Source of the DNA: Candidatus Oxydemutatoraceae bacterium
GTDB lineage: Bacteria; Pseudomonadota; Gammaproteobacteria; Poriferisulfidales; Oxydemutatoraceae
DNA: 64,000 nucleotides
Reading direction: 5' to 3'
Assembly (NCBI GenBank): GCA_965219575.1
Contig: OZ244779.1
Coordinates: forward strand, 396,769-460,768
Below the pieces are notes generated by a model. It made no database searches, had not been told where the DNA came from, and saw nothing but the letters and a program-made list of their open reading frames with translations. The position numbers were made by a program, and so were the translations under genes. Positions 2,397 through 57,342 of this stretch are shown here, piece after piece. Position 1 is the stretch's first letter, and the number at the start of each line of letters is the position of its first letter.

Positions 2397-2663
2397 AGGG
2401 CTGTTGAAAAAGTATCCACGAACTATGGGGACGGTACATTCCCCTCCTCTGGAGGGGTGGCAGGCGTAGCCTGACGGGGTGGTTGTGCCGTGGGGGCCGT
2501 TGAAAAAGTATCTGTCTGCACGAACCCAACCGCTTGCGCCGTGAATTTATAATAACCACCAAGCCGTAGGGGCAGTATAAAGCCGCCGATTGAGCCGGTA
2601 GGTCAATCGGCAATTCCATTGTAGTCCGCCCCTACGGTTCGTGGATACTTTTTCAACAGCCCC
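2397..2663. mobile_element. Mosaic MITE/REP element, copy 1
   Basis: Left end GGGCTGTTGAAAAAGTA; internal second end at 2493; CCCCTCCTCTGGAGGGG hairpin module; GTAG REP with nested GCCGATTGA..TCAATCGGC hairpin; right end TACTTTTTCAACAGCCCC. Confidence 0.85.
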
Positions 2664-2910
2664 GCCGTGTCCGTACGAGGTACAGTGTGGTACATTCCCC
2701 TAAATAGGAGGGGAATTAACTCGTGCAGAACCCCAACATGGATGTGTAAGGCTAGATAGACACATATCAAAAAAGCAATCGCATTCCGATAGTTTGCTAC
2801 AATAACTACTCGGGCCCCTCTTTTGAGTTTCGCACCCGGCAGACTTGAATAATTAATAGGGGGTTTCGTGAAAATATATTTACTTTATCTTGATTACAGG
2901 AGGAAAGATC

Positions 2911-3324
2911 ATGTTGAATAAACACTACAAAATAGTTATAGCCCTAGTTTGTGCTTCTTTGTTATCGGTTGCCTGCATGCATTCCGAAAACAAAAAAACT
3001 ATCCCGAATTTGTACGGAGAGTGGAAAGGAGTCAATCAGACTGTATCCGACGCTAAAGGATATTCGGAATGGGATAAAACGGTGACGATTAGCGAGCAGA
3101 AGGATCGTCGGTTCAAAGGCTACTTTGAATATAGCGAAGGTACTATAAACTTCTCGGGTGTGATTTTCGGTGATAACACATCTTTTGCGTGGACATCCGA
3201 GAATAGCCAAGGCTACAATGTAGGAAGAGTACTCGGAGATAATAAAATCAGTGCGTGTTATGTAGAGTCCGGGGAGCAAGCAACCGCAGGCTGTGCCGAA
3301 CTGACTCGCACCTCCATGCGTTAA
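2911..3324 (+). CDS. Hypothetical lipoprotein
   Basis: ATG after GGAGG RBS, lipobox-like LSVAC, beta-rich sequence. Confidence 0.6.
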   Translation: MLNKHYKIVIALVCASLLSVACMHSENKKTIPNLYGEWKGVNQTVSDAKGYSEWDKTVTISEQKDRRFKGYFEYSEGTINFSGVIFGDNTSFAWTSENSQGYNVGRVLGDNKISACYVESGEQATAGCAELTRTSMR

Positions 3325-3359
3325 CGCAACAACCGAATCCGTATGGAACTACCGTGCAA

Positions 3360-3379
3360 GGGAGGGTGTTAACCCTCCC
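3360..3379. terminator. GC-rich hairpin after the lipoprotein gene
   Basis: GGGAGGGT-GTTA-ACCCTCCC perfect stem; no clear U-tract. Confidence 0.45.
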
Positions 3380-3473
3380 CTACACGCGTTGAGTAACGCA
3401 TATTAGCAATATCGGATTTGAAATAACTGCCGTAGATAAAATACGGTTGATATTCAAAGTGCGATGATAGGGC

Positions 3474-4463
3474 ATGAAGCGTAGAGCATTTCTGAGTGTC
3501 GGGGCGAGCCTACTCATGTTGTCTATGATCGACCTAAAGCGTGGTTTCGGTTCGCCTCGACCCAAAGTCGGCATGGTCTACGATCCGTTATTTTCGGAAG
3601 ATTGGCGCGTACACGACCATCCGGAATCACCTATGCGATACCGGTCGGTGATCGACGGTTTCGAGCAAAACGGCATATTGAGGCAAACTTCAAAAATAGA
3701 ATTATTGGACGAAATCGAGCCTTCATTGCTGACCGTGCATAATAAAAAACATATTGATACGATTAAAAAGTTTTATGTTTATGCGCACGATGTTGCGTCG
3801 GCTGCGGTTGGTGCCGGATTGGCTGCCGTCGATGCAGTTTGTAGCGGTACGCACAATAGTGTTTTTTGTGCCATACGCCCGCCGGGTCATCATGCCTTAA
3901 ATACCGGCAGGGAGGAGGGCTTTTGTTTTTATAACAATGTTGCCATCGCCGCGCGTTATGCACAAAACAAATATAAGCGTGAGAAAGTTTTAATCGTAGA
4001 CTGGGATTACCATCACGGCAACGGCACGGAGGCGGTATTTTACGACGATCCGTCGGTGCTTTTTTTCTCTACACACGATTATCGTGCTTATCCGGGAACC
4101 GGAAATCCGACCAGAGTCGGTGCCGATAAAGGCAAAGGATACAATATCAATGTGCATTTGGATTGCGGCGCAAACGATGAGGACATCATCGGTGCCTTCA
4201 ACGACATATTGCTTCCCGCTGCCCACCGCTTCAAGCCCGACTTGATATTGATATCGGCAGGATTTGATAGTCGCAAGGACGATCTATTGGGTTGCTTCGA
4301 CATTACCGATGAGGGTTTTGCTCGGTTGACGCATATCGTGCGTAACCTTGCGGACGAATACTGCGACGGATGTATGGTATCATTACTGGAAGGGGGGTAT
4401 AGTTTATCGGGATTGTCAAATGCCACGGTTGCACACCTGAAAGCGATGCTTGAGATGTCCTGA
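3474..4463 (+). CDS. Histone deacetylase-family amidohydrolase with Tat-like signal
   Basis: HPE, RPPGHH, GFC, DWDYHHGNGT, SAGFD and LEGGY motifs; N-terminus MKRRAFL. Confidence 0.9.
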   Translation: MKRRAFLSVGASLLMLSMIDLKRGFGSPRPKVGMVYDPLFSEDWRVHDHPESPMRYRSVIDGFEQNGILRQTSKIELLDEIEPSLLTVHNKKHIDTIKKFYVYAHDVASAAVGAGLAAVDAVCSGTHNSVFCAIRPPGHHALNTGREEGFCFYNNVAIAARYAQNKYKREKVLIVDWDYHHGNGTEAVFYDDPSVLFFSTHDYRAYPGTGNPTRVGADKGKGYNINVHLDCGANDEDIIGAFNDILLPAAHRFKPDLILISAGFDSRKDDLLGCFDITDEGFARLTHIVRNLADEYCDGCMVSLLEGGYSLSGLSNATVAHLKAMLEMS

Positions 4464-4565
4464 CTAAATCTGATCGGTGCCTCTTTTCATTGATATATCC
4501 GACTGCCGAACACAACCGCAATGAGAAAATAGTACCGACTTTATAACGCTGATAAAGGAGTAAAG

Positions 4566-6263: not shown

Positions 6264-6318
6264 GGTATACTAGCAATTTTTGATTCAACATACGATAACT
6301 CATGAGGAGAAAAACGAT

Positions 6319-6846
6319 ATGATATTTAGCAATAGCAAACAGCCACTTAAAAATATTCGCCGTTGTTTGATAGCGAGCCACGGATTGCTCATCGCAATAT
6401 TTGCAGCCGTTATATTCGCTTCACCGGCGGCTGCCGATGATCTTGCAAAAGGCGAAAAAACTTTTATCAAGTGCAAGGTGTGTCACGCAGTGGAGAAAGA
6501 TGTAAGCAAAATAGGTCCTAGCTTGTACGGTGTCTACGGACGCAAAGCAGGCAGCTTGGAAAGTTTTGCGAACTACTCCGATGCAATCAAATCGACGGAT
6601 ATAGTTTGGAGCGATGAGACCATACGCGCATTCGTAAAGGCACCGCGCACTTATATCGCCGGTACAAAAATGATTTTTTTAGGTATCAAAGACGATAAGG
6701 AAATAGATAATTTATTGGCTTATCTAAAATCGGTCACCGGGGCCGAAACCGGTTCCGAGACTTCGGATGCCGAGACTTCGAACACCGAGACCTCGGATGC
6801 CGGCTCCGCTGCCGAGATGTCTCCGACCGAAACGACCGTAGAATAA
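6319..6846 (+). CDS. Class I cytochrome c (c2-like) with acidic ETS-repeat tail
   Basis: Signal peptide, CKVCH heme motif, GPSLYGV, GTKM axial Met; start chosen after GAGGAG. Confidence 0.9.
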   Translation: MIFSNSKQPLKNIRRCLIASHGLLIAIFAAVIFASPAAADDLAKGEKTFIKCKVCHAVEKDVSKIGPSLYGVYGRKAGSLESFANYSDAIKSTDIVWSDETIRAFVKAPRTYIAGTKMIFLGIKDDKEIDNLLAYLKSVTGAETGSETSDAETSNTETSDAGSAAEMSPTETTVE

Positions 6847-6875
6847 TTTTTTATTGCTCAGGCGCAAGACCGATG

Positions 6876-6908
6876 ACCGCCGATTGACCTACCGGATCAA
6901 TCGGTGGT
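6876..6908. repeat. Solo copy of the GCCGATTGA..TCAATCGG hairpin module between convergent genes
   Basis: ACCGCCGATTGACCTACCGGATCAATCGGTGGT. Confidence 0.75.
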
Positions 6909-7450
6909 TATCGGTATAGTGGTTCCGTGTATTCGTTTTTAAGCGATACATACATCTCTGCCGAATAAACAAGAAACTCCTTGTCCACTGCGCTGAGTTT
7001 GCGGATTTTCTTTATCGGTGAGCCCAACCATAAATAACCTCCCTCGATTATTTTGCCCGGTGGTACCAAGCTGTTGGCACCTATCATCGCCTCACTGCAA
7101 ACTACGGCACCGTCTAGAACCGTGCTACCCATACCGATCAACGCGGTATCTTCTATGGTACAAGCATGCAATATGCAGCGATGTCCTACCGTGACCTCGT
7201 TGCCTATCGTCAAATGATAACCGTCGGGAACATAAGAACTTTGATTGACGATATGCAAAACACTACCGTCCTGTATGTTAGTACGACTGCCTATCGTGAT
7301 AGTCATATCCATATCACCGCGCACCACGCTTGCATGCCACACCGAACTGTCTTCGCCGATAACGACATTACCGATGATATCGGCACTTTCGGCGATATAC
7401 GAGGACTCGGAAATACGCGGATAAATATTTTTATAAGATCTTATAGGCAT
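6908..7450 (-). CDS. Gamma carbonic anhydrase family protein (YrdA-like)
   Basis: Hexapeptide repeats, RGD, TNIQDGSVLH, VTVGH..LHAC; true start MPIRSY at 7450. Confidence 0.9.
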   Translation of the reverse strand: MPIRSYKNIYPRISESSYIAESADIIGNVVIGEDSSVWHASVVRGDMDMTITIGSRTNIQDGSVLHIVNQSSYVPDGYHLTIGNEVTVGHRCILHACTIEDTALIGMGSTVLDGAVVCSEAMIGANSLVPPGKIIEGGYLWLGSPIKKIRKLSAVDKEFLVYSAEMYVSLKNEYTEPLYR

Positions 7451-7523: not shown

Positions 7524-7784
7524 GGGGCTGTTGAAAAAGTGCGGACATTGCTCAAACCCAATCGCTGTGCGCCATGAACATTTGTAAACCGCCGTAGGGG
7601 CGGACTTGCATGTCCGCCCGTAACGCGTTATGCATGGACGATTTATACATTCATTCATCTGATTTATGGAAACCAAAACCAAATGGCGCAAGCGGTTGGC
7701 ATCGTGCAGAACGGTACTTAAGGGCAGACATCAGAGTTGCCGATTGACCTACCGGCTCAATCGGCGGCTTTATACCGCCCCTAC
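7524..7784. mobile_element. Mosaic MITE/REP element, copy 2 (no right end; overlaps the dsrK stop)
   Basis: GGGGCTGTTGAAAAAGT; REP GTAGGGGCGGACTTGCATGTCCGCCC; ATTTATGGAAACCAAAACC spacer; inverted REP with nested hairpin. Confidence 0.85.
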
Positions 7785-9317
7785 GACTTGGCGGCTGTCT
7801 GATGTCTCTTCCGCTTCCTCGACGGCATCGGGTTCCAGGACGATGGCGTTGCTCACCAGTTGGTGGATACACACGACTTGATCCAGTGTCAGTCCGTAGT
7901 ATGGGAAGATTTTGGTAAATTGGCTCTTGCAGATTGCACAGATTGCTGCCATATGTGTGACACCGCAGTGATCAACGACTTCTTGCAGTGCTTCCATGCG
8001 AGGCAGTGCGCCTTTCACTCTTAGTTCTATCAGGTCGTCGGTTAGCAAGCCACCGCCGCCGCCGCAGCAATAGGTGCCTTCTTTGATTGTTTCCGGCGAC
8101 ATGTCGTAGAAATGGTTGCAACAGGCTTTGATAATCTCGCGGGGTATGGTGAATTGTCCGCCCGGCATATCTCCCATCCGTGAGGCGCGGGCGATATTGC
8201 ACGAATCGTGAAAGGTCAGCACCATATCGTCGTTTTGCGAGGGGTCTAGGGTGAGTTTGTTTTTCTGGATGAGGTCGTGAGTAACCTCGCAGATATGTTG
8301 CGGCACCGGATAATCGGGGTCTAGGAAGTCGAAGGGGCCTGCCAGTGTATTGAGGAAACTGTAGGCGACGCGCCAAGCGTGTCCACATTCGCCGAATATG
8401 ATGCGCCGCACGCCGAGTTTTTGTGCCGCTTCGCGTATTCTCAGTGCGAGTTTTTGCATATTCTCATAGTTGCCGATGAACATACCGAAGTTGGCTGCCT
8501 CGCTGGCATGGGAGCTCAGAGTCCATGATATGCCTGCTTGATGAAATACTTTTGCATAACCGATTAAGCCGTCGACATGGGGTTCGGCAAAAAAATCCGC
8601 CGAAGGGGTCACCAGCAATACTTCGGCACCTGCTTCGTCAAGCGGGAAGCGCACTTTTGCGCCGGTGTCCTCGAAGACTTCCTCTTCCAAGCCTTCGAGT
8701 GTGTCCGCCAATGCCGGTTCGGGCAAGCCTAAGTTGTTGCCGATAACATGGACTTTGCCGATGATTTCGTTGCAGTATTTCTGCCCCTTGCCGATGTGAT
8801 CCATAATCTCTCGGGCTGCCATAGAAATCTCTGCGGTATCTATGCCGTAAGGGCAATATACCGAACAGCGTCGGCATTGCGAGCATTGGTGGAAGTAGCT
8901 ATACCAATCATCGAGCATTTCCTTGTTCATGTCTTCGGCACCGACCAGCCACGGGAAATACTTGCCCGAGAAAGTGTAATAGCGGCGATAGACTTTGCGG
9001 AATAAATCCTGCCGTGCGACCGGCATATTTTTGGGGTCGGTCGTGCCCAGATAGTAATGGCACTTATCGGTACAGGCACCGCACTTGACGCATGAGTCTA
9101 AGAAGACTTGTAGCGAGCGGTATTTGCCGACCAACTCACCCATTTTATCGACCGCAACCTGCTCCCAGTTATCAACCAGTTCGCCCGGAAAGCCTAACGA
9201 TTTCTGAAACTCGGCTTTCGCGGTAAAGGGCTGGCTGTGCTTCATCACATCCTCTTGCAATTTAGGGATCGCTCGGTCTTCTCTATATTTGGGGGTTTTG
9301 AATTCTGTTGTTGCCAT
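7770..9317 (-). CDS. dsrK: DsrK, Fe-S subunit of the DsrMK(JOP) complex
   Basis: CVKCGACTDKC, CSQCRRCSVYCP, GECGH, HDSC, CCGGGGG; start MATTEF after GAGG RBS. Confidence 0.95.
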   Translation of the reverse strand: MATTEFKTPKYREDRAIPKLQEDVMKHSQPFTAKAEFQKSLGFPGELVDNWEQVAVDKMGELVGKYRSLQVFLDSCVKCGACTDKCHYYLGTTDPKNMPVARQDLFRKVYRRYYTFSGKYFPWLVGAEDMNKEMLDDWYSYFHQCSQCRRCSVYCPYGIDTAEISMAAREIMDHIGKGQKYCNEIIGKVHVIGNNLGLPEPALADTLEGLEEEVFEDTGAKVRFPLDEAGAEVLLVTPSADFFAEPHVDGLIGYAKVFHQAGISWTLSSHASEAANFGMFIGNYENMQKLALRIREAAQKLGVRRIIFGECGHAWRVAYSFLNTLAGPFDFLDPDYPVPQHICEVTHDLIQKNKLTLDPSQNDDMVLTFHDSCNIARASRMGDMPGGQFTIPREIIKACCNHFYDMSPETIKEGTYCCGGGGGLLTDDLIELRVKGALPRMEALQEVVDHCGVTHMAAICAICKSQFTKIFPYYGLTLDQVVCIHQLVSNAIVLEPDAVEEAEETSDSRQVVGAV

Positions 9318-9330: not shown

Positions 9331-9535
9331 GGGGCTGTTGAAAAAGTACTGGTGTCGCACAAATCTAACCGCTTGCACTATTTGATTTTGGTTTCCATAA
9401 ATTGTATGGATAAATGTATAAATCATGCGGGCGCAACGCGCTACGGGCGGACATATAAGTCCGCCCCTACGGTAAGTAAACATAAATTGGGTGGGTAAAC
9501 ACATTGTTCTTGCAAAACGGTATTTTTTCAATAGA
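9331..9535. mobile_element. Mosaic MITE/REP element, copy 3 (between dsrM and dsrK)
   Basis: Left end GGGGCTGTTGAAAAAGTA, inverted spacer plus REP, degenerate right end TATTTTTTCAATAG. Confidence 0.8.
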
Positions 9536-9536
9536 T

Positions 9537-11855: not shown

Positions 11856-12122
11856 GGGAATGTTGAAAAAGTACTGTTTTCGCTCAACTGCAACCGCTTG
11901 CGCCATGAATATTTACAAACCACCCGTAGGGGTGGGCGGACATGTTAGTCCGCCCCTACTATGTCTGCCCGTACCGTTCGGAATAACCGAAACCGCTTGC
12001 GCCATTTGGTTTTGGTTTCCATAAACTGGATGAATAAATGTGTAAATCGTGCAGGCGCAACGCGTTACGGGCGGACATGCAAGTCCGCCCCTACGGTGCA
12101 TCAAATACTTTTTCAACGGCAC
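11856..12122. mobile_element. Mosaic MITE/REP element, copy 4 (between dsrB and dsrE)
   Basis: Ends GGGAATGTTGAAAAAGTA / TACTTTTTCAACGGCAC, flanked on both sides by TGCGA. Confidence 0.85.
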
Positions 12123-12129
12123 TGCGAGA

Positions 12130-14669: not shown

Positions 14670-14700
14670 GCCGCCGATTGAGCCAGTAGGTCAATCGGCG
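14670..14700. repeat. Solo hairpin module upstream of dsrA
   Basis: GCCGCCGATTGAGCCAGTAGGTCAATCGGCG. Confidence 0.75.
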
Positions 14701-14746
14701 TAACATTGTACAGAAACTTAGTAGATAATTACAAAGTGTAAAGCCT

Positions 14747-14955
14747 GGGGCTGTTGAAAAAGTGCGGCATCGTACGAATCCAATCACTTGCGCCATTTGG
14801 TTTTGGTTTCCATAAATTGGATGGATGAATGTATAAATCGTGTAGGCACAACGCGTTACGGGCGGACATGCTAGTCCGCCCCTACGGGTGGTTTGCAAAT
14901 ATTCACGGCGCAAGCGGTTACGGTTGCACGCTGACGATACTTTTTCAACAATCCC
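14747..14955. mobile_element. Mosaic MITE/REP element, copy 5, with 5-bp target duplication
   Basis: AGCCT|GGGGCTGTTGAAAAAGT ... ACTTTTTCAACAATCCC|AGCCT. Confidence 0.9.
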
Positions 14956-16302: not shown

Positions 16303-16368
16303 GCCGATTGACCCACCGGCTCAATCGGCGATTCTATTTCGCCTGCCGCCCCTACAAGGAGGGGAATT
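16303..16368. repeat. Remnant of mosaic element (hairpin plus REP end) upstream of gltD
   Basis: GCCGATTGACCCACCGGCTCAATCGGC...CCGCCCCTACAAGGAGGGGAATT. Confidence 0.7.
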
Positions 16369-21253: not shown

Positions 21254-22600
21254 TCAACTCGGGTTTGAACCGGAACCGTTGCCCAAGTGCATAAACTTGA
21301 GTTTGTCTTCGGAGTGTAGACCTCTGTAAGCAGGCAACACAGACCATATATCATAAATAGCGGCAGGGGTTGCCATAGACATCGTCAAAGCATCCAGATC
21401 TATCCACTCATATTTTTTATTGTTGTTTGCTACTATTACAACCGATGCACGGTCAAACGCCTGCTTCAGATCCACCGGGGTTATCCCTAGATTGGAAATC
21501 GCCCGACTACCGACGGCAAAATCGTGTCCACAAATCGTCGCTTCGGGATATCGCTGCCTCAAACATGCAACAATATCCAAACTCGACGAGGCACGAGTAT
21601 CATCGGTTTCGGGTCGTCCTTTGAATGCCATACCCAAAATACTTATTTTAGTGTCTTTACCTTTATGCGGAATAATTCCGGTGTGGTCAAGACGATCACA
21701 TACATAGCCGGGAAGAGATTCGTTCAGGGCTCTGCCCTGTTTAATCAACTGTGGCACATAATCATAAGCCTTCAGAGAGGCTTGCAGAATATGTGGGTCT
21801 TTATAGAGACAAGGCCCGCCTACAAAACCGGGATCCGAAATCTGTGTCCTCGCATAACCTATGTTTGCAGCCTTAATAATTTCCCTACTGTCTAACCCCG
21901 CTGCCTCACATAATAATGCAACTTCATTCCCTATCGCAAAATTTAAATCTCTATAACTGTTATCCAACAATTTAATAATCTCGGCACTCTCAAGAGAGGA
22001 AACCATAATAACCGTCGGCGTTATTCTTCTAAAGACCGCCTCTGCTTGCAATGCCGACGCTTCCGTCAAGCCACCGATAATTTGCGGTAAAACAGCTAGT
22101 TCGGCCATTGCATTGCCCTCGATGGTACGCTCGGGGCAATAGGCGAGGCCGAATTGTTTACCACTTTGCTCCAGAGTCTTTTTAACGATTTTACGGGTGG
22201 TGCCTAGTTGCACGGTCGAGCGCAATATGACCAGTGCATCGTCGCTCATATGATTTGCAATCTCTTTTGATACCGACTCTATCATATCCATACGAGGATA
22301 ACCTTCATCGCTAAGCGGCGTACCCACCGTGATGATATAAACCAAAGGTTTTTGTCTATCGTTATCGAGTTCGGATACTTTGGATAAAAAATGCAGTCTG
22401 CCTGCATTCAAGCCACCTTTGATGCGAGGTTCAAAACCTTTTTCTAAAAAGTGTGGTTTGCCTTGCATAAGCATTTTTAATATATCCGAATTTTTCTCTA
22501 CCCCCCAAACATCAAAGCCCCGATCGGACATAATCGCAGCTAAGGTTAGACCGACATAGCCCATACCCACAATACATATTTTTCTATGTTCTATTACCAT
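21254..22600 (-). CDS. UDP-glucose/GDP-mannose family nucleotide-sugar dehydrogenase (WecC-like)
   Basis: GMGYVG, ITVGTP, RSTV, CPER, GGPCLYKDP, GMAFK. Confidence 0.9.
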   Translation of the reverse strand: MVIEHRKICIVGMGYVGLTLAAIMSDRGFDVWGVEKNSDILKMLMQGKPHFLEKGFEPRIKGGLNAGRLHFLSKVSELDNDRQKPLVYIITVGTPLSDEGYPRMDMIESVSKEIANHMSDDALVILRSTVQLGTTRKIVKKTLEQSGKQFGLAYCPERTIEGNAMAELAVLPQIIGGLTEASALQAEAVFRRITPTVIMVSSLESAEIIKLLDNSYRDLNFAIGNEVALLCEAAGLDSREIIKAANIGYARTQISDPGFVGGPCLYKDPHILQASLKAYDYVPQLIKQGRALNESLPGYVCDRLDHTGIIPHKGKDTKISILGMAFKGRPETDDTRASSSLDIVACLRQRYPEATICGHDFAVGSRAISNLGITPVDLKQAFDRASVVIVANNNKKYEWIDLDALTMSMATPAAIYDIWSVLPAYRGLHSEDKLKFMHLGNGSGSNPS

Positions 22601-22865
22601 AGTTTTATCCTTAAAGTATCAATAAAAAATTTCGGCTTTTCAGGAAAATCAATCGCATATATTGTATAGATAATTTCGATTTTCCGGCATCATCATACTA
22701 ATAGATATAGAACACGGAACTCTCTCCTGTTCATAATAGGGAGCATTATATGCTTTCTGCCTGTCTACTTCAATTTATAGTGTCATTTGTTCGTACAATG
22801 TCGCTAGAAATATGGTAAACTATGAGTTTCGTAACCCCCTCATAAATTTACAAGGAGATGTAATT

Positions 22866-23417
22866 ATGAACCAAAACTTCAAACTCAAAAAGTCCATCAG
22901 ATTGATAACCGCTATTTTAGCAGGAAGCATGATGATGGCGGGAGCCGTATCTGCTGACGACTGCAAAATGCGCTCGGCACAGAAAATGTCCGGCGACTAT
23001 ATAATGGCAGCTGGCCACATGAAAGGTGAAGATCATCATCACGGTGATGGCATGATGAAAGATGCCGATCATGGCGATGGCATGATGAAAGATGCCGATC
23101 ATGGCGATGGCATGATGAAAGATGCCGATCATGGCGATGGCATGATGAAAGATGCCGGACACGGCGATGGCATGATGAAAGATGCCGGACACGGCGATGG
23201 CATGATGAAAGATGCCGGACACGGCGATGGCATGATGAAAGATGCCGGACACGGCGATGGCATGATGAAAGATGCCGGACACGGTGACGGCATGATGAAA
23301 GATGCCGGACACGGTGACGGCATGATGAAAGATGCCGGACACGGTGACGGCATGATGAAAGATGCCGGACACGGTGACGGCATGATGAAAGATGCCGGAA
23401 GCATGAAAAAGTATTAA
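22866..23417 (+). CDS. Secreted His/Met-rich tandem-repeat protein (paralog of the downstream HvfA-like precursor)
   Basis: AAGGAG RBS; signal peptide MNQNFKLKKSIRL..AGAVSA; 12 x HGDGMMKDA(D/G). Confidence 0.8.
   Translation: MNQNFKLKKSIRLITAILAGSMMMAGAVSADDCKMRSAQKMSGDYIMAAGHMKGEDHHHGDGMMKDADHGDGMMKDADHGDGMMKDADHGDGMMKDAGHGDGMMKDAGHGDGMMKDAGHGDGMMKDAGHGDGMMKDAGHGDGMMKDAGHGDGMMKDAGHGDGMMKDAGHGDGMMKDAGSMKKY
23040..23399 (+). repeat. Coding tandem repeat, 12 x 30 bp
   Basis: CAYGGYGAYGGCATGATGAAAGATGCCG(AT/GA) repeated head to tail. Confidence 0.95.
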
Positions 23418-23440
23418 AAACCTTTAATCTGCTAACAGGT

Positions 23441-23471
23441 ATAGGGGTGGGTCACATACCCACCCCCTATA
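23441..23471 (+). terminator. Putative terminator hairpin
   Basis: ATAGGGGTGGGT-CACAT-ACCCACCCCCTAT. Confidence 0.6.
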
Positions 23472-23770
23472 TCATGCGCCTGTTGAATGATTGCCACAAT
23501 CAAAACATTTCGACTTAATTGCGATACCCACCCGCAGGGTCGGCCCCTCTACTATTAAGCAAGGGGATACTAGCTCTCCCCTACAACACATATTTCTCTA
23601 GGCTCTGTTGCCATAGTTTTATCTTTCAAATATCAATAGAAAAATTTCGGTTGTTATCAAGAAAATCAACTGATATATTTTATAAATAATTGCGATTTTC
23701 AAATGTCGCTAGAGATATGATAGACTAGGGTTCTAAAAAACCCCTATAATCATATTAAGGAGACGTAATC

Positions 23771-24271
23771 ATGAACAAAAACTTCAAACTCAAAAAATCC
23801 ATCAGATTGGTAACCGCTACTTTGGCGGGAAGTATGACGATGGCGGGAGCTGTGTCTGCCGAAAGCAACATTTTCTCGGTGCAAGAACTACCCGGCGGCT
23901 ACATGCTGGCAGGTTCTCACATGGAGGGTAAATGTGGTGAAGGGCACTGCGGTGAAGGCATGAAAGGTGCCGAAGGGCAATGTGGTGAAGGCAGTTGCGG
24001 TGAAGGCATGAAAGGTGCCGAAGGGCAATGTGGTGAAGGCACTTGCGGTGAAGGCATGAAAGGTGCCGAAGGGCAATGTGGTGAAGGCACTTGCGGTGAA
24101 GGTATGAAAGATGCCGAAGGGCAATGTGGTGAAGGTCAGTGTGGTGGATCCATGAAAGATGCCGAAGGGCAATGTGGTGAAGGTCAGTGTGGTGGATCCA
24201 TGAAAGATGCCGAAGGGCAATGTGGTGAAGGTCAGTGTGGCGGATCTATGAAAAATGCCGAAAGGCGGTAA
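23771..24271 (+). CDS. HvfA-like (EGKCG-repeat) secreted RiPP precursor / metal-binding peptide
   Basis: Signal peptide, F..QELPGGYML linker, 14 EGxCG motifs, six 16-aa (48-bp) units MK(G/D)AEGQCGEGxCG(EG/GS). Confidence 0.8.
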   Translation: MNKNFKLKKSIRLVTATLAGSMTMAGAVSAESNIFSVQELPGGYMLAGSHMEGKCGEGHCGEGMKGAEGQCGEGSCGEGMKGAEGQCGEGTCGEGMKGAEGQCGEGTCGEGMKDAEGQCGEGQCGGSMKDAEGQCGEGQCGGSMKDAEGQCGEGQCGGSMKNAERR

Positions 24272-29897: not shown

Positions 29898-30148
29898 GCG
29901 ACTGTTGAAAAAGTATCCACGAACCGTAGGGGCGGACTTCAATTGAATTGCCGATTGACCTACTGGCTCAATCGGCGGCTCTATTCTGCCCGTAGCGCGT
30001 TGGTCGGCACGATTTATACATTCATCCACCCGATTTATGGAAACCAAAACCATACGGCGCAAGCGGTTCCAGCCGTGCAGAACGGTGCTTTAGGGCAGAC
30101 ATGCAAGTCCGCCTCTACCACTCTATGAAATACTTTTTCAACAGCCCC
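29898..30148. mobile_element. Mosaic MITE/REP element, copy 6
   Basis: GACTGTTGAAAAAGTATCCACGAAC, REP with nested hairpin, spacer, inverted REP, TACTTTTTCAACAGCCCC. Confidence 0.85.
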
Positions 30149-32348: not shown

Positions 32349-32396
32349 GGGGCTATTGAAAAAGTATTGGCATCGCACAACAGAACCGACACTTGT
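32349..32396. repeat. Isolated left end of mosaic element
   Basis: GGGGCTATTGAAAAAGTATTGGCATCGCAC; no partner end found nearby. Confidence 0.65.
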
Positions 32397-32518: not shown

Positions 32519-32773
32519 TTACTTTAACAAACCAACAACGGAGAAAATTACCGCAGATAGTCCTAAAAATATGGCGACATTCATGCCTACAACCCATACG
32601 ATCATTGTGTTTTTTGCATCCGCTATTTTTTCTATTAATCGCGCCTCCTGTTTTGCCAAGTCCGACTTAGTTGCTACTTCTTTGGAACCGACAACATCGG
32701 CCACAGCTTTTTCCGCTCCCTCGTGCTTGACACCTAACTTTGTTAGTACATTGTATAGGGCTATGTTTGACAT
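32519..32773 (-). CDS. DUF1640/CCDC90-like membrane-anchored coiled-coil protein, paralog 1
   Basis: LTKLG..A head, VATKSDL neck, short coiled coil, C-terminal TM. Confidence 0.7.
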   Translation of the reverse strand: MSNIALYNVLTKLGVKHEGAEKAVADVVGSKEVATKSDLAKQEARLIEKIADAKNTMIVWVVGMNVAIFLGLSAVIFSVVGLLK

Positions 32774-33083: not shown

Positions 33084-33350
33084 CTAGAGATATTTAATTA
33101 CTCCAATAATTGCTACGCCTAATATAACTATTTTCCATGTCATACGCGTCTCTAGCTTTGCTATAGCGGCATCTATGTATGTTTTAGTTGCCATATCTTT
33201 GACATCTGCTTTCGTTTCTGCTTTTAGTTCTATTATATCTGTTTTAGTTGCTACATTTTTTGAGCTGGCAACATCGGCCACGGCTTCCTTCGCTTCGTCG
33301 TGCTTCAGTCCTAATTTAGTCAATGCGTTGTATAGTGCGATTTCTGACAT
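33084..33350 (-). CDS. DUF1640/CCDC90-like membrane-anchored coiled-coil protein, paralog 2
   Basis: Near-identical N-terminus to paralog 1; VATKTDI, ETKADV and MATKTYI necks; C-terminal TM; AGGAG RBS. Confidence 0.7.
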   Translation of the reverse strand: MSEIALYNALTKLGLKHDEAKEAVADVASSKNVATKTDIIELKAETKADVKDMATKTYIDAAIAKLETRMTWKIVILGVAIIGVIKYL

Positions 33351-36187: not shown

Positions 36188-36349
36188 AGACTGTTGAAAA
36201 AGTGTCCACGAACTATAGGACGGTACATTCCCCTCCTCTGGAGGGGTGGCAGGCGCAGCCTGACGGGATGGTCGCTGCGTGGGGCTGTTGAAAATAGGAA
36301 AGTCGATTGACCTACCGGCTCAATCGGCGGCTCTATCCTGCCCCTACAG
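36188..36349. mobile_element. Left part of mosaic element (two left ends) adjoining the Rpn gene
   Basis: GACTGTTGAAAAAGT plus CCCCTCCTCTGGAGGGG module; second end GGGGCTGTTGAAAA at 36281; hairpin plus CCCCTAC. Confidence 0.8.
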
Positions 36350-36365
36350 GTATCAATCAGCAATA

Positions 36366-36662: not shown

Positions 36663-37325
36663 CTTCGTCTCTCCGTCTTGTGATAAATGCTTTACTTGCT
36701 AAGCCGTCAATTCCGCCGAGTGCTTGATAATATAGCACCACCTATCCGTCATATCAACCAACTCAAGGTAGTTCTTGTTGAACTTGCTCAATTCCACTAT
36801 CACCAACCCAAAATCCTTAGTCAATTCTTTATGCCGATGCTTACGCAGAGTGATTATTGTCTCGTTTATATAGTCCTCTTCATCAAACACCGTGAACCGA
36901 GTAAACACCAGTAAGTGGCTCGGATCAATCCGACTAAACTTTTGTCCACGCTTCATACCATAAGAGTGCAACTGCACCCAATAAGCCAACATTCTACTAA
37001 AGAAGTCCTTTTGAGAATAGCCCTGCATCTCTATGTCGATATTCTCACCGCTATTTAATTTGACATGGAGGTCTAGCACAACTTGTTTGCCACCCGGTGT
37101 GTCCGGTGGGATAGAGCTATCCTGCAGATGTAGCATATCGCCCGATTGGTTTTGTTGATTTGCGGTTTCGGATGCAGGGTTGAGTATCATCATATCCGGC
37201 GCATTATCGGAGGTCGGCAGGAAGCTCTTAATCAACGAGAACAATACTTGCTTATTGATCGAGAAGTATCGCTTAAAGGAAATATCTTTTGTCAAGTCTA
37301 AGTATCCGAGATGTTTTTCATTCAT
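36366..37325 (-). pseudogene. Rpn-family (PD-(D/E)XK nuclease / putative transposase) gene interrupted by one in-frame TAG
   Basis: DISFKRYF, LDLHV, IDIEMQ, IVELSKF, W.Y.IK motifs; TAG at 36699-36701 is in frame with the downstream AKGL-repeat/HTH part. Confidence 0.8.
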
Positions 37326-37490
37326 AGTAAATCTCCTATAAATTGGGTGTAAAACATCTACCCTAAACCCGGTATTGAGTAGGAGGAGAGACAAATGGAT
37401 GAACGGTAGTAAATACATGTTGAACGGTATATTAGAGGGTGATATTCCCTTGCAAAGGAGGGGAATATCCACCCTAAAGGTGCCTTAAGA

Positions 37491-37563
37491 ATACTTTTTC
37501 AACAGCCCCGCCCCGAAAGTATCTGCGCAACGTCACGCCGATTGACCTACCGGCTCAATCGGA
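37491..37563. mobile_element. Right end of mosaic element plus hairpin, upstream of the Rpn gene
   Basis: ATACTTTTTCAACAGCCCC, then GCCGATTGACCTACCGGCTCAATCGG. Confidence 0.8.
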
Positions 37564-37570
37564 GGTTCTA

Positions 37571-38080
37571 TCATAGTTTCCTAGAATCGTAAGCCCAATG
37601 CAACAATGCTTGCCGTTGTCGAGGACGACAATTTATATCGCCGCGTCTGCAATTTTTTTCGACGGCACTTACGTGCCGCTTGATCGCACGCCATCGTTTG
37701 ATCTGTCTTATATCTTCCGAAGGAATACGCCGCCCCATATAATAGCGGCAATACCATTGAAACCAACCGCGCGGGTCGTAAGGATAAATCCAACCTTTCT
37801 TTCTCCATTCTCGCAACGGTAAAGAAGCGTCCACCTTGAAGTAATTTAATGTCGGGTCTTTATGCAGTAGTGCGAGTTTGGCATTCTCGAACCAAGTGTG
37901 CGGAAATTCGTCTTGGCAGTCACACATATATTTGCCGCCGAAAATTCCCAGCTTCAATAACTCTTTAGGGCTGAGTTGCGGTTTGAAATCGTCGTCGAAA
38001 TTACGACCTACCGGTTCCACCAAGTAATAGACATAATTTCTCTGCATCTTGTCGTTGACCACGACTTTTTTCCGTGTCAT
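37571..38080 (-). CDS. Conserved hypothetical basic protein
   Basis: P.ELL.LG.FGGKY, DPRGWFQWYCRYY.GRR, RQI.RW, RQALLHW motifs. Confidence 0.7.
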   Translation of the reverse strand: MTRKKVVVNDKMQRNYVYYLVEPVGRNFDDDFKPQLSPKELLKLGIFGGKYMCDCQDEFPHTWFENAKLALLHKDPTLNYFKVDASLPLREWRKKGWIYPYDPRGWFQWYCRYYMGRRIPSEDIRQIKRWRAIKRHVSAVEKNCRRGDINCRPRQRQALLHWAYDSRKL

Positions 38081-38110: not shown

Positions 38111-38463
38111 AAGGCTGTTGAAAAGTACTGTTTTTGCACAACTGCAACCGCTTGCGCCGTGAATATCTACAAACCACCCGTAAGGGCGGACTCACATGTC
38201 CGCCCGCCCCTACGGTTCGTGGATACTTTTTCAACAATCCCTGCGTATCTGCACAATTTTTACCCGATTTATGGAAACCAAAACCACACGGCGCAAGCGA
38301 TTACAGCTGTGCAGAACGACACTTTAGGGCGGACATCAAAATTGCCGATTGACCTACTGGCTCAATCGGCGGCTTTGTTCTGCCCCCACGGCTTGGTGGT
38401 TATTATAAATTCACGGCGCAAGCGGTTACGGTTGCACGCTGACGATACTTTTTCAACAGTCCC
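38111..38463. mobile_element. Mosaic MITE/REP element, composite copy 8 (one left end, two right ends)
   Basis: GGCTGTTGAAAAGTA ... TACTTTTTCAACAATCCC (38241) ... TACTTTTTCAACAGTCCC. Confidence 0.85.
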
Positions 38464-38476
38464 TCGCGCGTGAACG

Positions 38477-40133: not shown

Positions 40134-40430
40134 GGGACTGTTGAAAAAGTACCGCTCTGCACGAATTCAACCGCTTTGCACCACATGTATGATAACCACA
40201 AAGTCGTAGGGGCAGACCTGTGTGTCTGCCCAAAACGATACCGTTCTGCACAGCCGTAACCGCTTGCGCCATTTAGTTTTGGTTTCCATAAATTGGATGA
40301 ATGAATGTATAAATTGTGCAGGCACAACGCGTTACGGGCAGAACAGAGCCGCCGATTGAGCCAGTAGGTCAATCGGCAATTTAATGAAGTCCGCCCCTAC
40401 CACTCTATGAAATACTTTTTCAACAGCCCC
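40134..40430. mobile_element. Mosaic MITE/REP element, copy 9, with 4-bp flanking duplication
   Basis: ATGT|GGGACTGTTGAAAAAGTA ... TACTTTTTCAACAGCCCC|ATGT. Confidence 0.88.
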
Positions 40431-43118: not shown

Positions 43119-43760
43119 CGGGCTGTTGAAAAAGTATCCACGAACTGTAAGGACGGTACATTCCCCTCCTTCGGAGGGGTAGCAGGCGCAGCCTGACGGG
43201 GTGGTTGCGGAAGTGGGGCTGTTGAAAAAGTATCCACGAACTGTAAGGACGGTACATTCCCCTCCTTTGGAGGGGTGGCAGGCGCAGCCTGACGGGGTGG
43301 TCGCTGGGGTCTTGCACAATGTCACGCCGATTCACCTACTCGCTCAATCGGCGGCTCTGTTCTACCCGTAACTTGTTGCGCCTGTACAATTTATACATTT
43401 ATTCATCCAATTTATGGAAACCAAAGCCATACGGCGTAAGCGATTACGGCTGTGCAGAACGACACTTAAGGGCAGACACACAGGTCTGCCCCTACGGCTT
43501 GGTGGTTATTATAAATTCATGGCACAAGCGGTTACGGTTGCAAGCTGACGATACTTTTTCAACAGCCCCGTCGTATCTGTACTATTTACTCATTCATCCA
43601 ATTTATGGAAACCAAAGCCATACGGCGTAAGCGATTACGGCTGTGCAGAACGACACTTAAGGGCAGACACACAGGTCTGCCCCTACGGCTTGGTGGTTAT
43701 TATAAATTCATGGCGCAAGCGGTTACGGTTGCAAGCTGACGATACTTTTTCAACAGCCCC
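43119..43760. mobile_element. Mosaic MITE/REP element, large composite copy 10
   Basis: Two tandem left-end/CCCCTCC modules (43119, 43215); two near-identical right arms of about 169 bp (43401-43569, 43592-43760). Confidence 0.9.
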
Positions 43761-43770
43761 ACTATCGTGT

Positions 43771-45865: not shown

Positions 45866-46116
45866 GGGACTGTTGAAAAAGTATCCACGAACCGTAGGGG
45901 CGGACTTGCATGTCCGCCCGTGACGCGTTGGTCGGCACGATTTATACATTCATCCACCCGATTTATGGAAACCAAAACCATACAGCGCAAGCGGTTACAG
46001 TTGTGCAGAACGGTACTTTAGGGCGGACATGCAAGTCCGCCCCTACAAATGGTTTGCGTAATTGAGGGGCGCAAGCGGTTACGGTTGCACGCTGACGATA
46101 CTTTTTTAACAGCCCT
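45866..46116. mobile_element. Mosaic MITE/REP element, copy 11 (between ridA and recG)
   Basis: GGGACTGTTGAAAAAGTATCCACGAAC, two inverted GTAG REPs around the spacer, TACTTTTTTAACAGCCC. Confidence 0.88.
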
Positions 46117-52445: not shown

Positions 52446-52446
52446 A

Positions 52447-53199: not shown

Positions 53200-53419
53200 T
53201 ATTATTTTACTAATTTTTTGTATCTTAATTGATTATCGATTATAGCTCGCACATATTTGTTAATATCGCTCTCTATCACTAAATGAGGTCACTCCGGTTC
53301 TAAAAATTCTTTTACAATCTGATAAGCTAGAAAATTACATTCTTAAGTCGCCCTGATTTTATCATAGCCTTTAACATGTTCCTCCATTTAATTGGCAATA
53401 TGTATAATAGTTGTATCTT

Positions 53420-55456
53420 ATGACCGACAAAAGAGAAATCCTTGTAACCAGTGCTTTGCCGTACGCAAACGGGCCGATCCATATCGGTCATCTGGTGGAA
53501 TATATACAAACCGATATTTGGGCGCGTTTTCAGCGGTTGGTCGGGAACAGTTGCTACTACATCTGTGCCGACGATGCACACGGCACGCCGGTCATGCTCA
53601 AGGCGCAAGATGACGGTATAGATCCCGAGCAGTTGATTGCCGAAATGCGCAAGGCGCATATCAGGGATTTCAAGACTTTTCATATTCGGTTTGATAATTA
53701 CCATTCCACACACTCAAAAGAAAACCAAGCCATCAGCAACCATATCTATCAATGCGCCAAAGAGAAGGGTTATATAGAAAAGCGTACTATTCGTCAAGCC
53801 TACGACGAGAGCGCAAAGATGTTTCTGCCCGACCGTTATATCCGCGGCGAGTGTCCGCGGTGCGGTGCCAAAGACCAGTACGGAGATTGTTGCGAGGTAT
53901 GCGGTGCCACTTACAATTCCTCGGAGTTGATCAACCCGCACTCGGTAATCTCCGGCGACAAGCCCGTGCTACGCGAGTCGGAGCATTATTTCTTCAAACT
54001 CGGCATGCTTAAGGAACACCTAAAGTCATGGCTGTCGTCCGATCGCGTCCAGCAAGAAATCAAAAACAAACTGGACGAATGGTTTTCGGCAGGGTTACAA
54101 GATTGGGATATTTCGCGCGATGCGCCGTACTTCGGGTTTGAAATACCCGACCATCCGAACAAGTATTTCTATGTGTGGCTGGACGCACCCATAGGCTATA
54201 TTGCGAGCTTCAAGAATTACTGCGATCGCAAGGGTCTCGATTACAAGCGTTTTTGGGATGCCGACAGCAATACCGAACTGCATCATTTCATAGGCAAGGA
54301 CATCGCCTATTTTCACACTCTGTTTTGGCCGGCACTGCTCGACAGTGCAAATCTGAGACTGCCGACCCGAATCTATAGTCATGGCTTTCTGACGGTAGAC
54401 GGCGCAAAAATGTCTAAATCGCGCGGCACTTTTATCAAAGCCGAGACTTACGCAAAGCATCTGAACCCCGAATATCTGCGTTATTACTTCGCCGCCAAAC
54501 TAGGTTCGGGCATAGACGATATAGACCTCAATATGAAAGATTTCGTTCTGCGCGTGAATAGCGACCTAGTCGGCAAAGTTATCAACATCGCCGGGCGCTG
54601 CGCAAGTTTTATAGCGAAATACTTTGACAACCGAATAATCTGTTCCGAACAGCTACTCAAACATCCATGCTATAAGAAATTTAGGGAAGCGGAAGCGGAG
54701 ATTTGCCGAAACTATGAAAAGGTGGAATACGCCGCTGCGATGCGTTTGATTATGTCGCTTGCCGACGAAGCCAATCGCCTAATTGACCGGCACAAACCAT
54801 GGGCGATAGCAAAGGAACAAGGTGCCTCAACCGAACTGCACGAGATATGTAGTTTAGGGTTACTGCTGTTTAGCCGTTTATGTCTATACCTCAAACCGGT
54901 CTTGCCGGTGATGACCGAACAAGCCGAGAAATTCCTCAATATCTCGGTGGCACATTGGGATGACGCACCCTTTGAAGCAAAAGACCATCACACCATAGGT
55001 CGGTTCAAGCCTCTGATGACTCGTGTCGAGCCGAAGACGGTAGAGGCAATGATCGCAGACGAGGCGGCAAGTCAACAGGCAAAAGATAAATCTACCGACA
55101 AAACGACAACCGCATCGTCATCCGATGCCGAGACTATTACGCTTGCCGACTTTCAGAAACTGGACTTGCGTGTTGCGCGCATCGTTGCTGCCGAAGAAGT
55201 GGACGGTGCCGATAAGCTATTGGAACTCTCGGTGGATTTGGGAGAAAAAGAACCTCGCAAGATCTTGGCAGGAATCAAAAGTGCTTATCGCAGTGCCGAT
55301 TTAGTCGGCAAACATGTCGTCGTCGTCGCCAATCTAGAACCTAAAAAGATGCGCTTCGGCACCTCGCACGGCATGGTTCTGGCAGCGGGAGACGGCACCG
55401 ATTTATTTTTATTGGCACCCGACCCGGGTGCGGAAGCCGGATTGAAAATTAAATAG
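53420..55456 (+). CDS. metG: Methionine--tRNA ligase
   Basis: [11 protein letters not shown], Zn knuckle, KMSKS, C-terminal tRNA-binding domain. Confidence 0.97.
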
Positions 55457-55469
55457 AACCTTGTCCGCC

Positions 55470-56051
55470 ATGCAAGACTACATATTAATCGTCATCAATG
55501 TCGCGCTCATCAACAATTTCATACTTGCCAAGTTTTTGGGGCTATGCCCGTTGCTAGGCACCTCACGGCGTATTGACAGCGCAATCGGCATGTCGCTTGC
55601 CACGCTATTCGTACTGACGCTGGCATCGGTGCTCAGTTATCTAGTGCAACATTATTTACTGATGCCGTACCAGCTGGAATATCTGAACGCTTTGGTGTTC
55701 ATATTATTGATCGCGGTTGTAGTTCAATTAACCGAAATGACGATACATAAAATGAACCCGCTGATACATAACATGCTCGGCATTTATTTGCCTTTGATTA
55801 CTACGAATTGTGCGGTGCTTGCGGTTACTCTGCTCAACAGTCGCAATGCCGAAAGTTTTATGGAAGCATTGTTTATGGGTTTCGGCACAGCGATAGGCTT
55901 TGCCGTCGTGCTAATTATTTTTGCGAGCCTTAGAGAAAAGCTGGAACACGCCGATGTGCCGACTCCCTTCAAAGGTGCCGGCATTGCAATGATTACTGCC
56001 GGCATTATGTCTATAGCATTTATGGGCTTTAGCGGATTAGATAGCGGTTGA
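55470..56051 (+). CDS. rnfA: Rnf/Rsx electron transport subunit A
   Basis: [27 protein letters not shown]. Confidence 0.92.
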
Positions 56052-56941
56052 TGATTATGGCGATACTGATCTTCGGTGCCACCGCACTGTTGATAGGGTA
56101 TGCGGTAGAACGCTTGGCTGCCTACCTTGCCCCCACCGACGACAGCCTAGTCTCTAAGGTCAATGCCTTGTTGCCGCAAACACAATGTGCGCAGTGCGGC
56201 TATCCGGGCTGTAGACCTTATGCTCAAGCCATCGTGGAAAAAAATGCACCCATAGATCAATGTCCGCCCGGTGGACAAACCACCACCGTCGCATTAAGCC
56301 GATTATTAGGGCGCGAAACCCCGAATAGGCAACCTATCGCAGAGGCAGCCGCGCTCGTCGCCCGTATTAGAGAAGCCGATTGCATCGGTTGCACCTTATG
56401 CATCAAAGCATGTCCGGTAGATGCCATCGTCGGCGCGCACGAATACATGCACAGTGTTATAGGGCAATACTGCACCGGTTGCGAGCTATGCGTAGCACCG
56501 TGTCCGATGGACTGCATAGAAATGATAGAAGCCAAGCCCGACAAGAACACCGACCGACCTGCCAAAGTAGAAACAGCTTGCATCCACTGCGATCGCTGCA
56601 ACGATATATGCCCGGTGGATTTGCCCGCCCACAGCCTCTATCAACTGATACGAGCCTGCAACATGGATGATGCAATTAGCGAAGGCTTAGCCGACTGTAT
56701 ATTGTGCGGTTCGTGCGATGTCGTTTGCCCGAGCCATATTCCGCTCACTCAAATATACCGCAACGCCAAACATCAATACCACAAGCTATCCAAACAACGC
56801 CGGCACGCCGCACAAGCACAATCGCGCTATGAAATACACAATACCCGATTGCTACAACAAGAACTCAAAGACCGACAAAGCCAACAAACCCAAAAAGAAT
56901 TACTCAAAGCACAAATCAAATCTCAACAGACACCCCGATAA
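56048..56941 (+). CDS. rnfB: RnfB fused to an RnfC-like C-terminal 2[4Fe-4S]/coiled-coil region
   Basis: [38 protein letters not shown], then [30 protein letters not shown]. Confidence 0.8.
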
Positions 56942-56967
56942 ACGACTGTACTTCGTACAGACACGGC

Positions 56968-57342
56968 GGGGCTGTTGAAAAAGTACGGACATCACACAAA
57001 TCCAACCGCTGTGCGCCATGAACATTTGCAAACCACCTGTAGGGGCAGTATAAAGCCGCCGATTGAGCCGGTAGGTCAATCGGCAACTCTGATGTCTGCC
57101 CTTAAGTACCGTTCGGCACGACACCAACCGCTTGCGCCATGAATATTTACAAACCACCCGTAGGGGCGGACTGGCATGTCCGCCCTAAAGTTCTGTTCTG
57201 AACAGCCGCAACCGCTTGCGCCGTATGGTTTTGGTTTCTATAAATTGAATGGATGAATGTATAAATCGTGCCGGCCAACGCGTTACGGGCGGACATGCAA
57301 GTCCGCCCCTACAACTTTATGAAATACTTTTTCAACAGTCCC
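56968..57342. mobile_element. Mosaic MITE/REP element, copy 12
   Basis: GGGGCTGTTGAAAAAGTA ... three REPs ... TACTTTTTCAACAGTCCC. Confidence 0.88.

Follow-up and report, generated by a model that had tools for sequence, protein, structure and literature searches.

A stretch of 64,000 nucleotides on contig OZ244779.1 (assembly GCA_965219575.1, positions 396,769 to 460,768), from a bacterium assigned to Candidatus Oxydemutatoraceae and referred to here at its full length as the window, contains composite intergenic repeats built from six recurring modules, A through F. [quoted passage not shown] This explanation draws on the identity of the element ends with those of full-length IS copies, on target duplications, on hairpins that are split by insertions and can be restored, on nesting, on families of fixed length and on identical IS copies. 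What is said below of mobilization in trans, of the origin of the hairpin cargo between the ends and of present activity in the window's genome is drawn conditionally from these observations.

Each module was counted on both strands of the window and compared with 100 dinucleotide shuffles. At up to three mismatches there are 25 matches to module A (shuffle mean 0.02), 11 to module C (0.00), 12 to module E (0.00), 4 to module F (0.00) and 11 to module D2 (0.04); module D1 has 9 matches at up to two mismatches (0.13) and module B has 16 at up to one mismatch (0.06). All six modules recur far above chance, and the recurrent, module-built intergenic elements described in the original prediction are real: the matches group into 16 clusters of 18–642 bp each, of which 12 contain one A or more; all are intergenic relative to long open reading frames (ORFs), and together they amount to 3820 bp (6.0% of the window). 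As had been predicted for the extent of the system, 2397 is the start of the first A and 57342 the end of the last, and comparison of the window with itself by BLAST revealed no member of the repeat system beyond the 16 clusters, the remaining repeats being unrelated.

The common layout of a complete window copy, found in either overall orientation, is an A end and spacer, a unit of B, AT-rich sequence and a GTAG hairpin, a unit of B, D2, D1 and the inverted hairpin, and a second spacer and A end. Departures from this layout consist of an extra hairpin unit, an E module in the loop, or tandem A-F units. Nine short A-to-A pairs of 171–642 bp are present, and six complete copies align with a mean identity of 52%, gaps counted, a figure that reflects their differing architectures. 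Modules had been predicted to be shuffled in order, number and orientation; what we find is more than one consensus with deletions, but it consists of a few families of fixed length with limited module order. Nor is A always the outermost repeated sequence, as had been supposed, since a conserved stretch of about 23 nt adjoins it in several copies. The self-BLAST repeat at the last cluster begins at 56945, 23 nt before A, that at the first cluster extends to 2686, 23 nt past A, and an outer flank of the type GTRCAGAYACG is common to about 8 window A ends. The stretch directly outside A (window 56945–56967 and 2664–2686, and near position 2256 of locus L076 in the comparison set described below) carries a small CTGTAC/GTACAG palindrome and may serve as one more preferred target or represent an additional module.

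Besides housekeeping genes, a profile search with NCBIfam identified DsrABEFHCMK, Rnf subunits and a SoxYZ-like carrier in the window, a gene content that marks the host as a sulfur-oxidizing gammaproteobacterium; it is close to 'Candidatus Porisulfidus'. A pattern search of genome contigs with module A, allowing one two-fold position (R), returned at least 109 loci (labeled L001 onward). Among the matches listed, three 'Candidatus Porisulfidus' assemblies account for 73 loci, with 46 in CBDAVG010000002.1, 21 in OZ241323.1 and 6 in OZ244052.1, and unrelated organisms for 36, with one match each where positions are given; the latter number fits the roughly 35 matches that chance alone would yield in 596 Gb for a pattern of 18 nt of which one position is two-fold. 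The 73 Porisulfidus loci were merged into 61 stretches totaling 198,869 bp (~199 kb of ~7.6 Mb), and together with the window ~263 kb was read. The window's own genome is not among the compared loci. Among the matches listed, the only locus overlapping the window is L070 of OZ244052.1, which is 95.4% identical over 549 nt; this places the window in a close relative of OZ244052.1. The two congeneric, IS-bearing assemblies, CBDAVG01 and OZ241323, are referred to as the sister genomes.

The 18 bp of module A form the terminal inverted repeat of an insertion sequence belonging to the IS1182 family. Loci L065 and L022 each hold, at positions 2001–3815, an element of 1815 bp with inverted A at both ends and a single ORF of 576 aa (619 aa if read from an upstream GTG). 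Against NF033551, the IS1182 model of NCBIfam with a cutoff of 270 bits, the two transposases reach 379 and 373 bits, and they also match the Pfam families DUF772 and DDE_Tnp_1_6, which settles the earlier guess of an IS5/IS1182-type end in favor of IS1182. A full IS ending in A, which the original prediction had proposed to seek, exists in at least five copies in the two sister genomes, with lengths of 1650–1827 bp, transposases of 521–580 aa and a 4-bp target duplication, whereas none was found in the window. The five sampled copies are counted as those with identical 4-bp flanks: L008/L094 (1815 bp), L065 (1815 bp) and L072 (1650 bp, 521-aa transposase) in CBDAVG01, and L022 (1815 bp) and L023 (1827 bp) in OZ241323. 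With a single ORF, 18-bp terminal inverted repeats and a length of 1650–1827 bp, which we take to lie within the range of the family, the parent IS has the features of IS1182. Both 1815-bp copies of CBDAVG01 are 100% identical to each other, which points to recent IS activity in that genome.

Protein-database comparisons place the transposase in a lineage-specific branch of IS1182 with an internal repeat region. The best nine clusters are 69–87% identical to it across the full length; lower-ranked relatives are mostly ~450–490 aa long, with local alignments that cover a third to half of the query or else show 33–36% identity over nearly the whole of it. The internal tandem repeat, of ~40–55 residues (KLERRE...VKDEKQQS...), lies between the DUF772 and DDE regions (ORFs at L065 2022–3752 and L072 346–1908), and the 521-aa transposase of the 1650-bp variant is shorter by 55 residues.

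Because A is the end of full IS1182-family copies in congeneric genomes, the short A-bounded elements can be classed, from their sequences, as putative MITEs. Joining each rightward A to the next leftward A by nesting gave 70 pairs, 69 of them scorable and 67 shorter than 3 kb. Identical 4-bp flanks were found in 29 of the 69 pairs, whereas 1000 trials of random re-pairing averaged 10.0 and never exceeded 18; for pairs below 3 kb the counts are 18/36 in CBDAVG01, 7/16 in OZ241323 and 2/4 in OZ244052. Pair lengths are discontinuous, with 11 pairs at ~250 bp and 6 at 138–152 bp in CBDAVG01 and 8 at 138–152 bp in OZ241323. They define fixed-length families of ~251 bp, with a GTAG doublet, and ~141 bp, with module F and often E, plus shorter forms, and some MITE pairs are 100% identical.

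The A-bounded elements of the sister genomes have a strong, though not absolute, preference for REP loops. An A end abuts an arm of a split REP in 45 of 108 cases in CBDAVG01 and 21 of 47 in OZ241323 (66/155 together). The abutted piece belongs to the variant with stem GGGAGGGC and loop TAACAT and is its 3' arm or else its 5' arm together with the loop. At 59 of 108 ends in CBDAVG01 and 26 of 47 in OZ241323, the four bases immediately outside A are ACAT or ATGT. Of the 25 duplication-bearing insertions in the two sister genomes, 15 yield an intact hairpin once the element and one copy of the duplicate are deleted; the remaining 10 include several back-to-back insertions, where a second element used the duplicated ACAT beside the first (examples are L008, at the IS end, and L106). 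The preference is not absolute because non-REP targets also occur: GAAT twice, ATTT, GCGA, and ACAT or ATGT outside hairpins.

Many MITEs carry the targeted hairpin ~10 nt inside A, and elements consequently land in one another. Six of the 67 pairs are nested within another pair, and at 6 A ends the adjoining REP loop already holds a different A end. The predicted targeting of elements by one another thus holds in the sister genomes, where REPs inside other elements are among the targets, but not in the window. At L073, a 537-bp nest of three elements occupies a site that in the orthologous L070 measures ~90 bp and holds only an F-like relic. Unit numbers also appear to change by recombination between repeated units: the site in L064 exceeds its ortholog in L078 by one hairpin unit and a one-ended F element, and L020 contains eight tandem hairpin-plus-B units. 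Four orthologous pairs were present in the sample, of which three were aligned; these three were rearranged, and none gave a clean comparison of filled and empty sites.

An unrelated IS, of the IS110 family, is also found inserted in the loop of the REP hairpin on which the IS1182-type elements land. This placement rests on the copies at L016 2282–3637 and L037 460–1827, which are 73% identical over 1390 bp; their transposases lie at L016:2554–3552 and L037:554–1678, and a third IS110-family transposase ORF, at L051:2619–3743, lies outside that comparison. The L016 copy is located inside an outer A-to-A element.

The cargo of the ~251-bp family consists of two inverted GTAG hairpins set ~104 bp apart, and modules B, D1 and D2 lie in the interval or next to the hairpins. 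Module C is a REP with a GTAG tag and an 8-bp stem (fold −10.1 kcal/mol, z −3.1), and its stem variants GGGCGGAC, GGGCAGAC, GGGCGGAT and GGGAGGGC each have a matching, compensatory 3' arm. A strict detector found 37 adjacent hairpin pairs, of which 17 are tail-to-tail, all spaced 103–106 bp, and 20 are tandem, mostly 56–60 bp apart, while none is head-to-head. The arrangement resembles that of REPINs (REP doublets forming hairpins) and not that of bacterial interspersed mosaic elements (BIMEs), and the predicted GTAG REPIN-type cores are borne out by these inverted doublets of fixed spacing. An A end lies 10–12 nt away on one side or 49–53 nt away on the other in 16 of the 17 doublets, and in 9 of them on both; these fixed distances define a canonical 251-bp element of A, ~11 nt, a ~154-bp doublet, ~50 nt and A. 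The single doublet without an A within four mismatches (L061 141–294) has a degenerate A-like right end. Variants of module B keep a 3-bp stem by two-sided changes, mostly CGC..GCG and elsewhere CAC..GTG (window 11892–11904; L042 near 2025), which suggests a small conserved hairpin within B.

Module E is a hairpin with a 9-bp stem and a conserved loop containing GTAG, and its stem variants in the sister genomes show compensatory changes. Ten E copies were strictly detected in the window, six flanked by both arms of module C, three by one arm and one by none, in agreement with the claim that a third hairpin lies within the REP. Relative to the GTAG tag, E may face either way, and within module C it folds as a hairpin in a hairpin (−15.9 kcal/mol, z −4.1). 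E also forms part of one end of an F-type MITE of ~141–150 bp in the sister genomes.

These features suggest the following mechanism. An IS1182 DDE transposase would move the noncoding MITEs in trans, duplicating 4 bp of target, and the sister-genome enzyme would prefer ACAT in the TAACAT loop. Each MITE insertion would plant new landing sites through its own end-proximal hairpin, the duplicated ACAT would permit back-to-back insertions at a single site, and recombination or slippage between hairpin units would alter their number, giving rise to tandem arrays and deletions. The REP variant of the window has the loop TTGCAT, which lacks ACAT, and is not used as a target. The window copies look like older members of the same system, as they are more diverged and few have kept flank duplications. 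More tentatively, a REPIN-like GTAG doublet may have been captured between IS1182 ends and have spread as MITE cargo without a REP-associated tyrosine transposase (RAYT), each insertion seeding landing pads, so that a self-reinforcing nest grew that spared genes; we regard this as possible, though less probable than the general explanation.

Several results weigh against the proposed explanation. The window is without an IS1182 transposase among its ORFs (searched with NCBIfam, some also with Pfam), its 25 A ends include no IS end, and neither do the 12 A ends of OZ244052.1, the nearest relative fetched; no current transposase source is therefore evident for the window copies. In the window, no A end out of 25 abuts a REP arm, and identical 4-bp flanks are limited to 2 of its 9 short pairs. 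Overall, 40 of the 69 pairs are without identical flanks. The MITEs share nothing with the IS interior past the 18-bp ends, so descent by internal deletion of the IS lacks support. In addition, 29 of the 109 loci carry flanks shorter than the intended 2000 bases, and the loci were selected for their A content and are biased as to the frequency of A-free hairpins.

An alternative, which follows the original prediction of different enzymes, is that true REPINs, moved by a RAYT of the HUH/Y1 class encoded elsewhere, inserted into pre-existing elements with terminal inverted repeats, so that two enzyme systems were at work. The GTAG tag and 8-bp stem of module C, the inverted doublets at fixed spacing as in REPINs and the compensatory REP stem variants would all be expected of such elements; E, found in loops in both orientations with respect to GTAG, resembles the product of a separate insertion process, and a second enzyme family, IS110, does use the same hairpins. 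However, no match to Y1_Tnp or RAYT was found among 59 window ORFs (NCBIfam; 16 also Pfam) or, with Pfam at 1e-6 and 1e-5, among 169 ORFs from the loci, the minimum ORF length being 100 aa, a search whose scope was the ~263 kb read and which leaves room for a RAYT elsewhere in the genomes. The fixed distances between A and hairpin in 16 of the 17 doublets are predicted by integral cargo and not by independent insertions, all 17 REP stems of the window fall within composite clusters, and even the doublet lacking A (L061) retains a degenerate A-like right end. We consider a RAYT-driven origin unlikely, although it is the most probable of the alternatives weighed here.

Host function could explain part of the same evidence. 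If the repeats were BIME-like structures serving as terminators or as mRNA stabilizers in operons, kept by selection and diversified by recombination and not by transposition, one would understand why four clusters lie in or beside the dsr operon, why folding is strong (z between −3.1 and −6.0 in single hairpins, and −4.1 in the element of the dsrB-dsrE gap), why stem changes are compensatory and why orthologous sites vary in unit number. Such an account leaves aside target duplications well over the shuffled expectation, hairpins that are split and restorable, and IS and MITE copies that are 100% identical; a search of the whole window against Rfam gave no match at gathering thresholds. Any host use would add to mobility and not substitute for it, and selection as the sole cause appears improbable. 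Misjoined repeats would be a concern in that every genome involved is a metagenome-assembled genome. Nevertheless, the window and three separate assemblies, of which two are labeled chromosomes, show the same modules, junctions and duplications, overlapping loci were identical at every base on merging, and the junctions are base-precise, which makes an assembly artifact hardly credible. IS1182-ended MITEs with hairpin cargo, nested through REP-loop targeting, remain the explanation that we favor.

Several known systems share parts of this architecture. BIMEs of Escherichia coli, which are mentioned in PMC2817692, are mosaics of palindromic units and linker motifs. They resemble the present clusters as mosaics of REP hairpins with a few recurring linker motifs set by hairpin side; unlike them, the arrays described here include no head-to-head pair (0/37) and are bounded by IS ends with target duplications. 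The REPIN-RAYT system (Bertels and Rainey 2011, PMC3116915) likewise has two inverted GTAG hairpins with a fixed spacer, in high copy number and extragenic, whereas the doublets here lie at fixed distances between DDE-type terminal inverted repeats, with no RAYT in the sequence examined. GTAG REPs with loops as long as 27 bp, in which a self-complementary inner region has GC-rich termini, as well as REP dimers, have been described (Di Nocera et al. 2013, PMC3733652), and these complex loops resemble E inside module C, although E also occurs solo, in the end of the F-type MITE, and in either orientation.

Insertion sequences of the IS3, IS110, IS4, IS256 and IS5 families are reported to target REPs (Tobes and Pareja 2006, PMC1525189), among them the REP-loop-specific IS1397 and ISKpn1 (IS3 family) and IS621, ISPpu9 and ISPpu10 (IS110 family). 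Like the elements described here, these have a fixed insertion point at or near the symmetry axis of the REP, a short direct repeat and a split REP that can be reconstructed, and the IS110-family IS found in our loci behaves as the REP-targeting members of its family do (PMC1525189). The differences are that the family here is IS1182, and that non-autonomous derivatives share the target and carry it as cargo, which leads to nesting; in the text of PMC1525189 the terms IS1182 and MITE do not occur. Bacterial MITEs named in print include Correia/NEMIS, RUP, ERIC, Nezha and MITEAba12 (PMC3733652; PMC6382973). They share with the present elements a length of 70–300 bp, terminal inverted repeats, a noncoding interior, target duplication, intergenic and co-transcribed location, and a parent IS with the same ends; in contrast to them, the present system comprises several families with unrelated interiors and one common 18-bp end, the interior being a REPIN-like doublet or hairpin array.

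Much of this is known already: ISs that target REP loops, MITEs for which a parent IS exists, nested MITEs, REPIN doublets, complex REP loops, and BIMEs and mosaic repeat clusters. With REP-targeting ISs of five families (PMC1525189) and complex REP loops and REP dimers (PMC3733652) in print, the original view that the architecture is undescribed was, as far as these sources go, too strong. What is apparently new is an IS1182-family member with a REP-loop target, and MITEs whose REPIN-like doublet cargo is itself the target. Keyword searches of open-access text returned no title or abstract that describes REP or REPIN cargo bounded by terminal inverted repeats, or IS1182 MITEs targeting REPs, and the literature mentioning Porisulfidus contains, judging by titles or abstracts, nothing on repeats. 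IS1182 would thereby join the IS families known to target REP loops. The system links REP/REPIN hairpins and terminal-inverted-repeat MITEs, which are usually treated separately, through one transposase family that would both carry the hairpins and aim at them, and targeted nested insertion together with unit recombination offers a simple account of how mosaic clusters may grow in a symbiont-type genome. The elements also matter for the annotation and assembly of these genomes.

Four of the window clusters lie in or adjoin the dsr operon and one supplies the stop codon of dsrK, so the elements would be co-transcribed with core metabolic genes. At 7524..7791 (plus strand), a one-TIR element, that is, one with a single terminal inverted repeat, consists of A, a B-like segment, a GTAG hairpin, D1, D2, B and a hairpin whose loop contains E. 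The listed dsrK ORF runs into this element, its last six codons (QVVGAV) and stop occupying 7770–7790 of a repeat that extends to 7791; the codons and stop are REP arm and E flank sequence, and the DsrK family match stops 11 residues before the end of the ORF. A second one-TIR element (A, B-like, D2, D1 and inverted GTAG hairpin) occupies the dsrM-dsrK gap at 9331..9470 (plus). The dsrB-dsrE gap contains a 268-bp A-to-A MITE at 11856..12123 (plus; RNA fold z −4.1) with identical 4-bp flanks GCGA and, at ~11927–11970, one hairpin apparently within another. Upstream of dsrA, the cluster at 14673..14955 (plus) comprises a solo E (14673–14699) followed by a 209-bp A-to-A MITE (14747–14955), which has AGCCT flanks on both sides that were missed by the 4-mer test.

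The first cluster, at 2397..2686 (no strand assigned), is a composite of an A-F unit (2397–2492), a 171-bp A-to-A element (2493–2663) with E in the loop of its GTAG hairpin, and the 23 nt of repeated outer flank. Single hairpins are represented by a solo E between two convergent genes at 6879..6905 (minus; DNA fold −13.3 kcal/mol, z −6.0) and by an E with one surviving REP arm at 16303..16355 (minus). A 251-bp A-to-A MITE with a REPIN-like core and E in one hairpin loop occupies 29898..30148 (minus), and the canonical 251-bp MITE, at 45866..46116 (minus), reads A, 10 nt, the REPIN-like doublet (45894–46046), 52 nt and A. The MITE at 40134..40430 (plus) measures 297 bp from A to A and has identical 4-bp flanks ATGT and an E in the loop of its second hairpin. 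More degraded forms include a solo A end at 32349..32366 (plus), a degenerate composite of an A-like end, F, an A stub, E and one REP arm at 36189..36351 (plus), and an A end with adjacent E at 37491..37572 (minus), beside a PD-(D/E)XK (Rpn-type) gene. Two abutting elements make up 38113..38467 (no strand assigned), one of ~129 bp with a degenerate left A, ending at 38241, and one of ~222 bp that ends in A at 38463; an E lies in a REP loop of this cluster. The largest composite, at 43119..43763 (plus), contains two tandem 96-bp A-F units, E, and a tandem-duplicated D1-D2-hairpin-B-A segment with a period of 191 bp. The last cluster, at 56945..57345 (plus), holds a 375-bp A-to-A MITE (56968–57342) with an extra E-carrying hairpin unit and the 23 nt of repeated outer flank.

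Two other genes of the window were considered in connection with mobility. An IS of the IS1595 family lies at 62048–63401, with 28-bp inverted ends (62048–62075 and 63374–63401) and a transposase ORF at 62161–63120 that scores 194 bits against NCBIfam (cutoff 75) and matches the Pfam families DDE_Tnp_IS1595 and a zinc ribbon; its ends are unrelated to A, which rules it out as the parent of A. Locus L058 holds an IS1595-family copy 68% identical to that of the window. Between the clusters at 36189–36351 and 37491–37572, a gene at 36699–37472 encodes a 257-aa PD-(D/E)XK protein annotated as 'Rpn family recombination-promoting nuclease/putative transposase'; it was considered as a mobilizing enzyme, and no link to the repeat ends was found. 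A search of the window for tRNA and tmRNA genes returned none.

An internally repetitive gene pair occupies 22569–24266, in which 23771–24271 matches the HvfA family of oxazolone/thioamide metallophores (ribosomally synthesized and post-translationally modified peptides, RiPPs) with its KCGExKCG repeats, and 22812–23417 with its upstream region has repeats in common with it. On the minus strand, two paralogous ORFs at 32519–32773 and 33084–33350 encode 84 and 88 aa, with N-termini MSNIALYNVLTKLG and MSEIALYNALTKLG and a hydrophobic C-terminus, and explain a direct repeat of 107–114 nt in an otherwise ORF-poor stretch of 1.2 kb.

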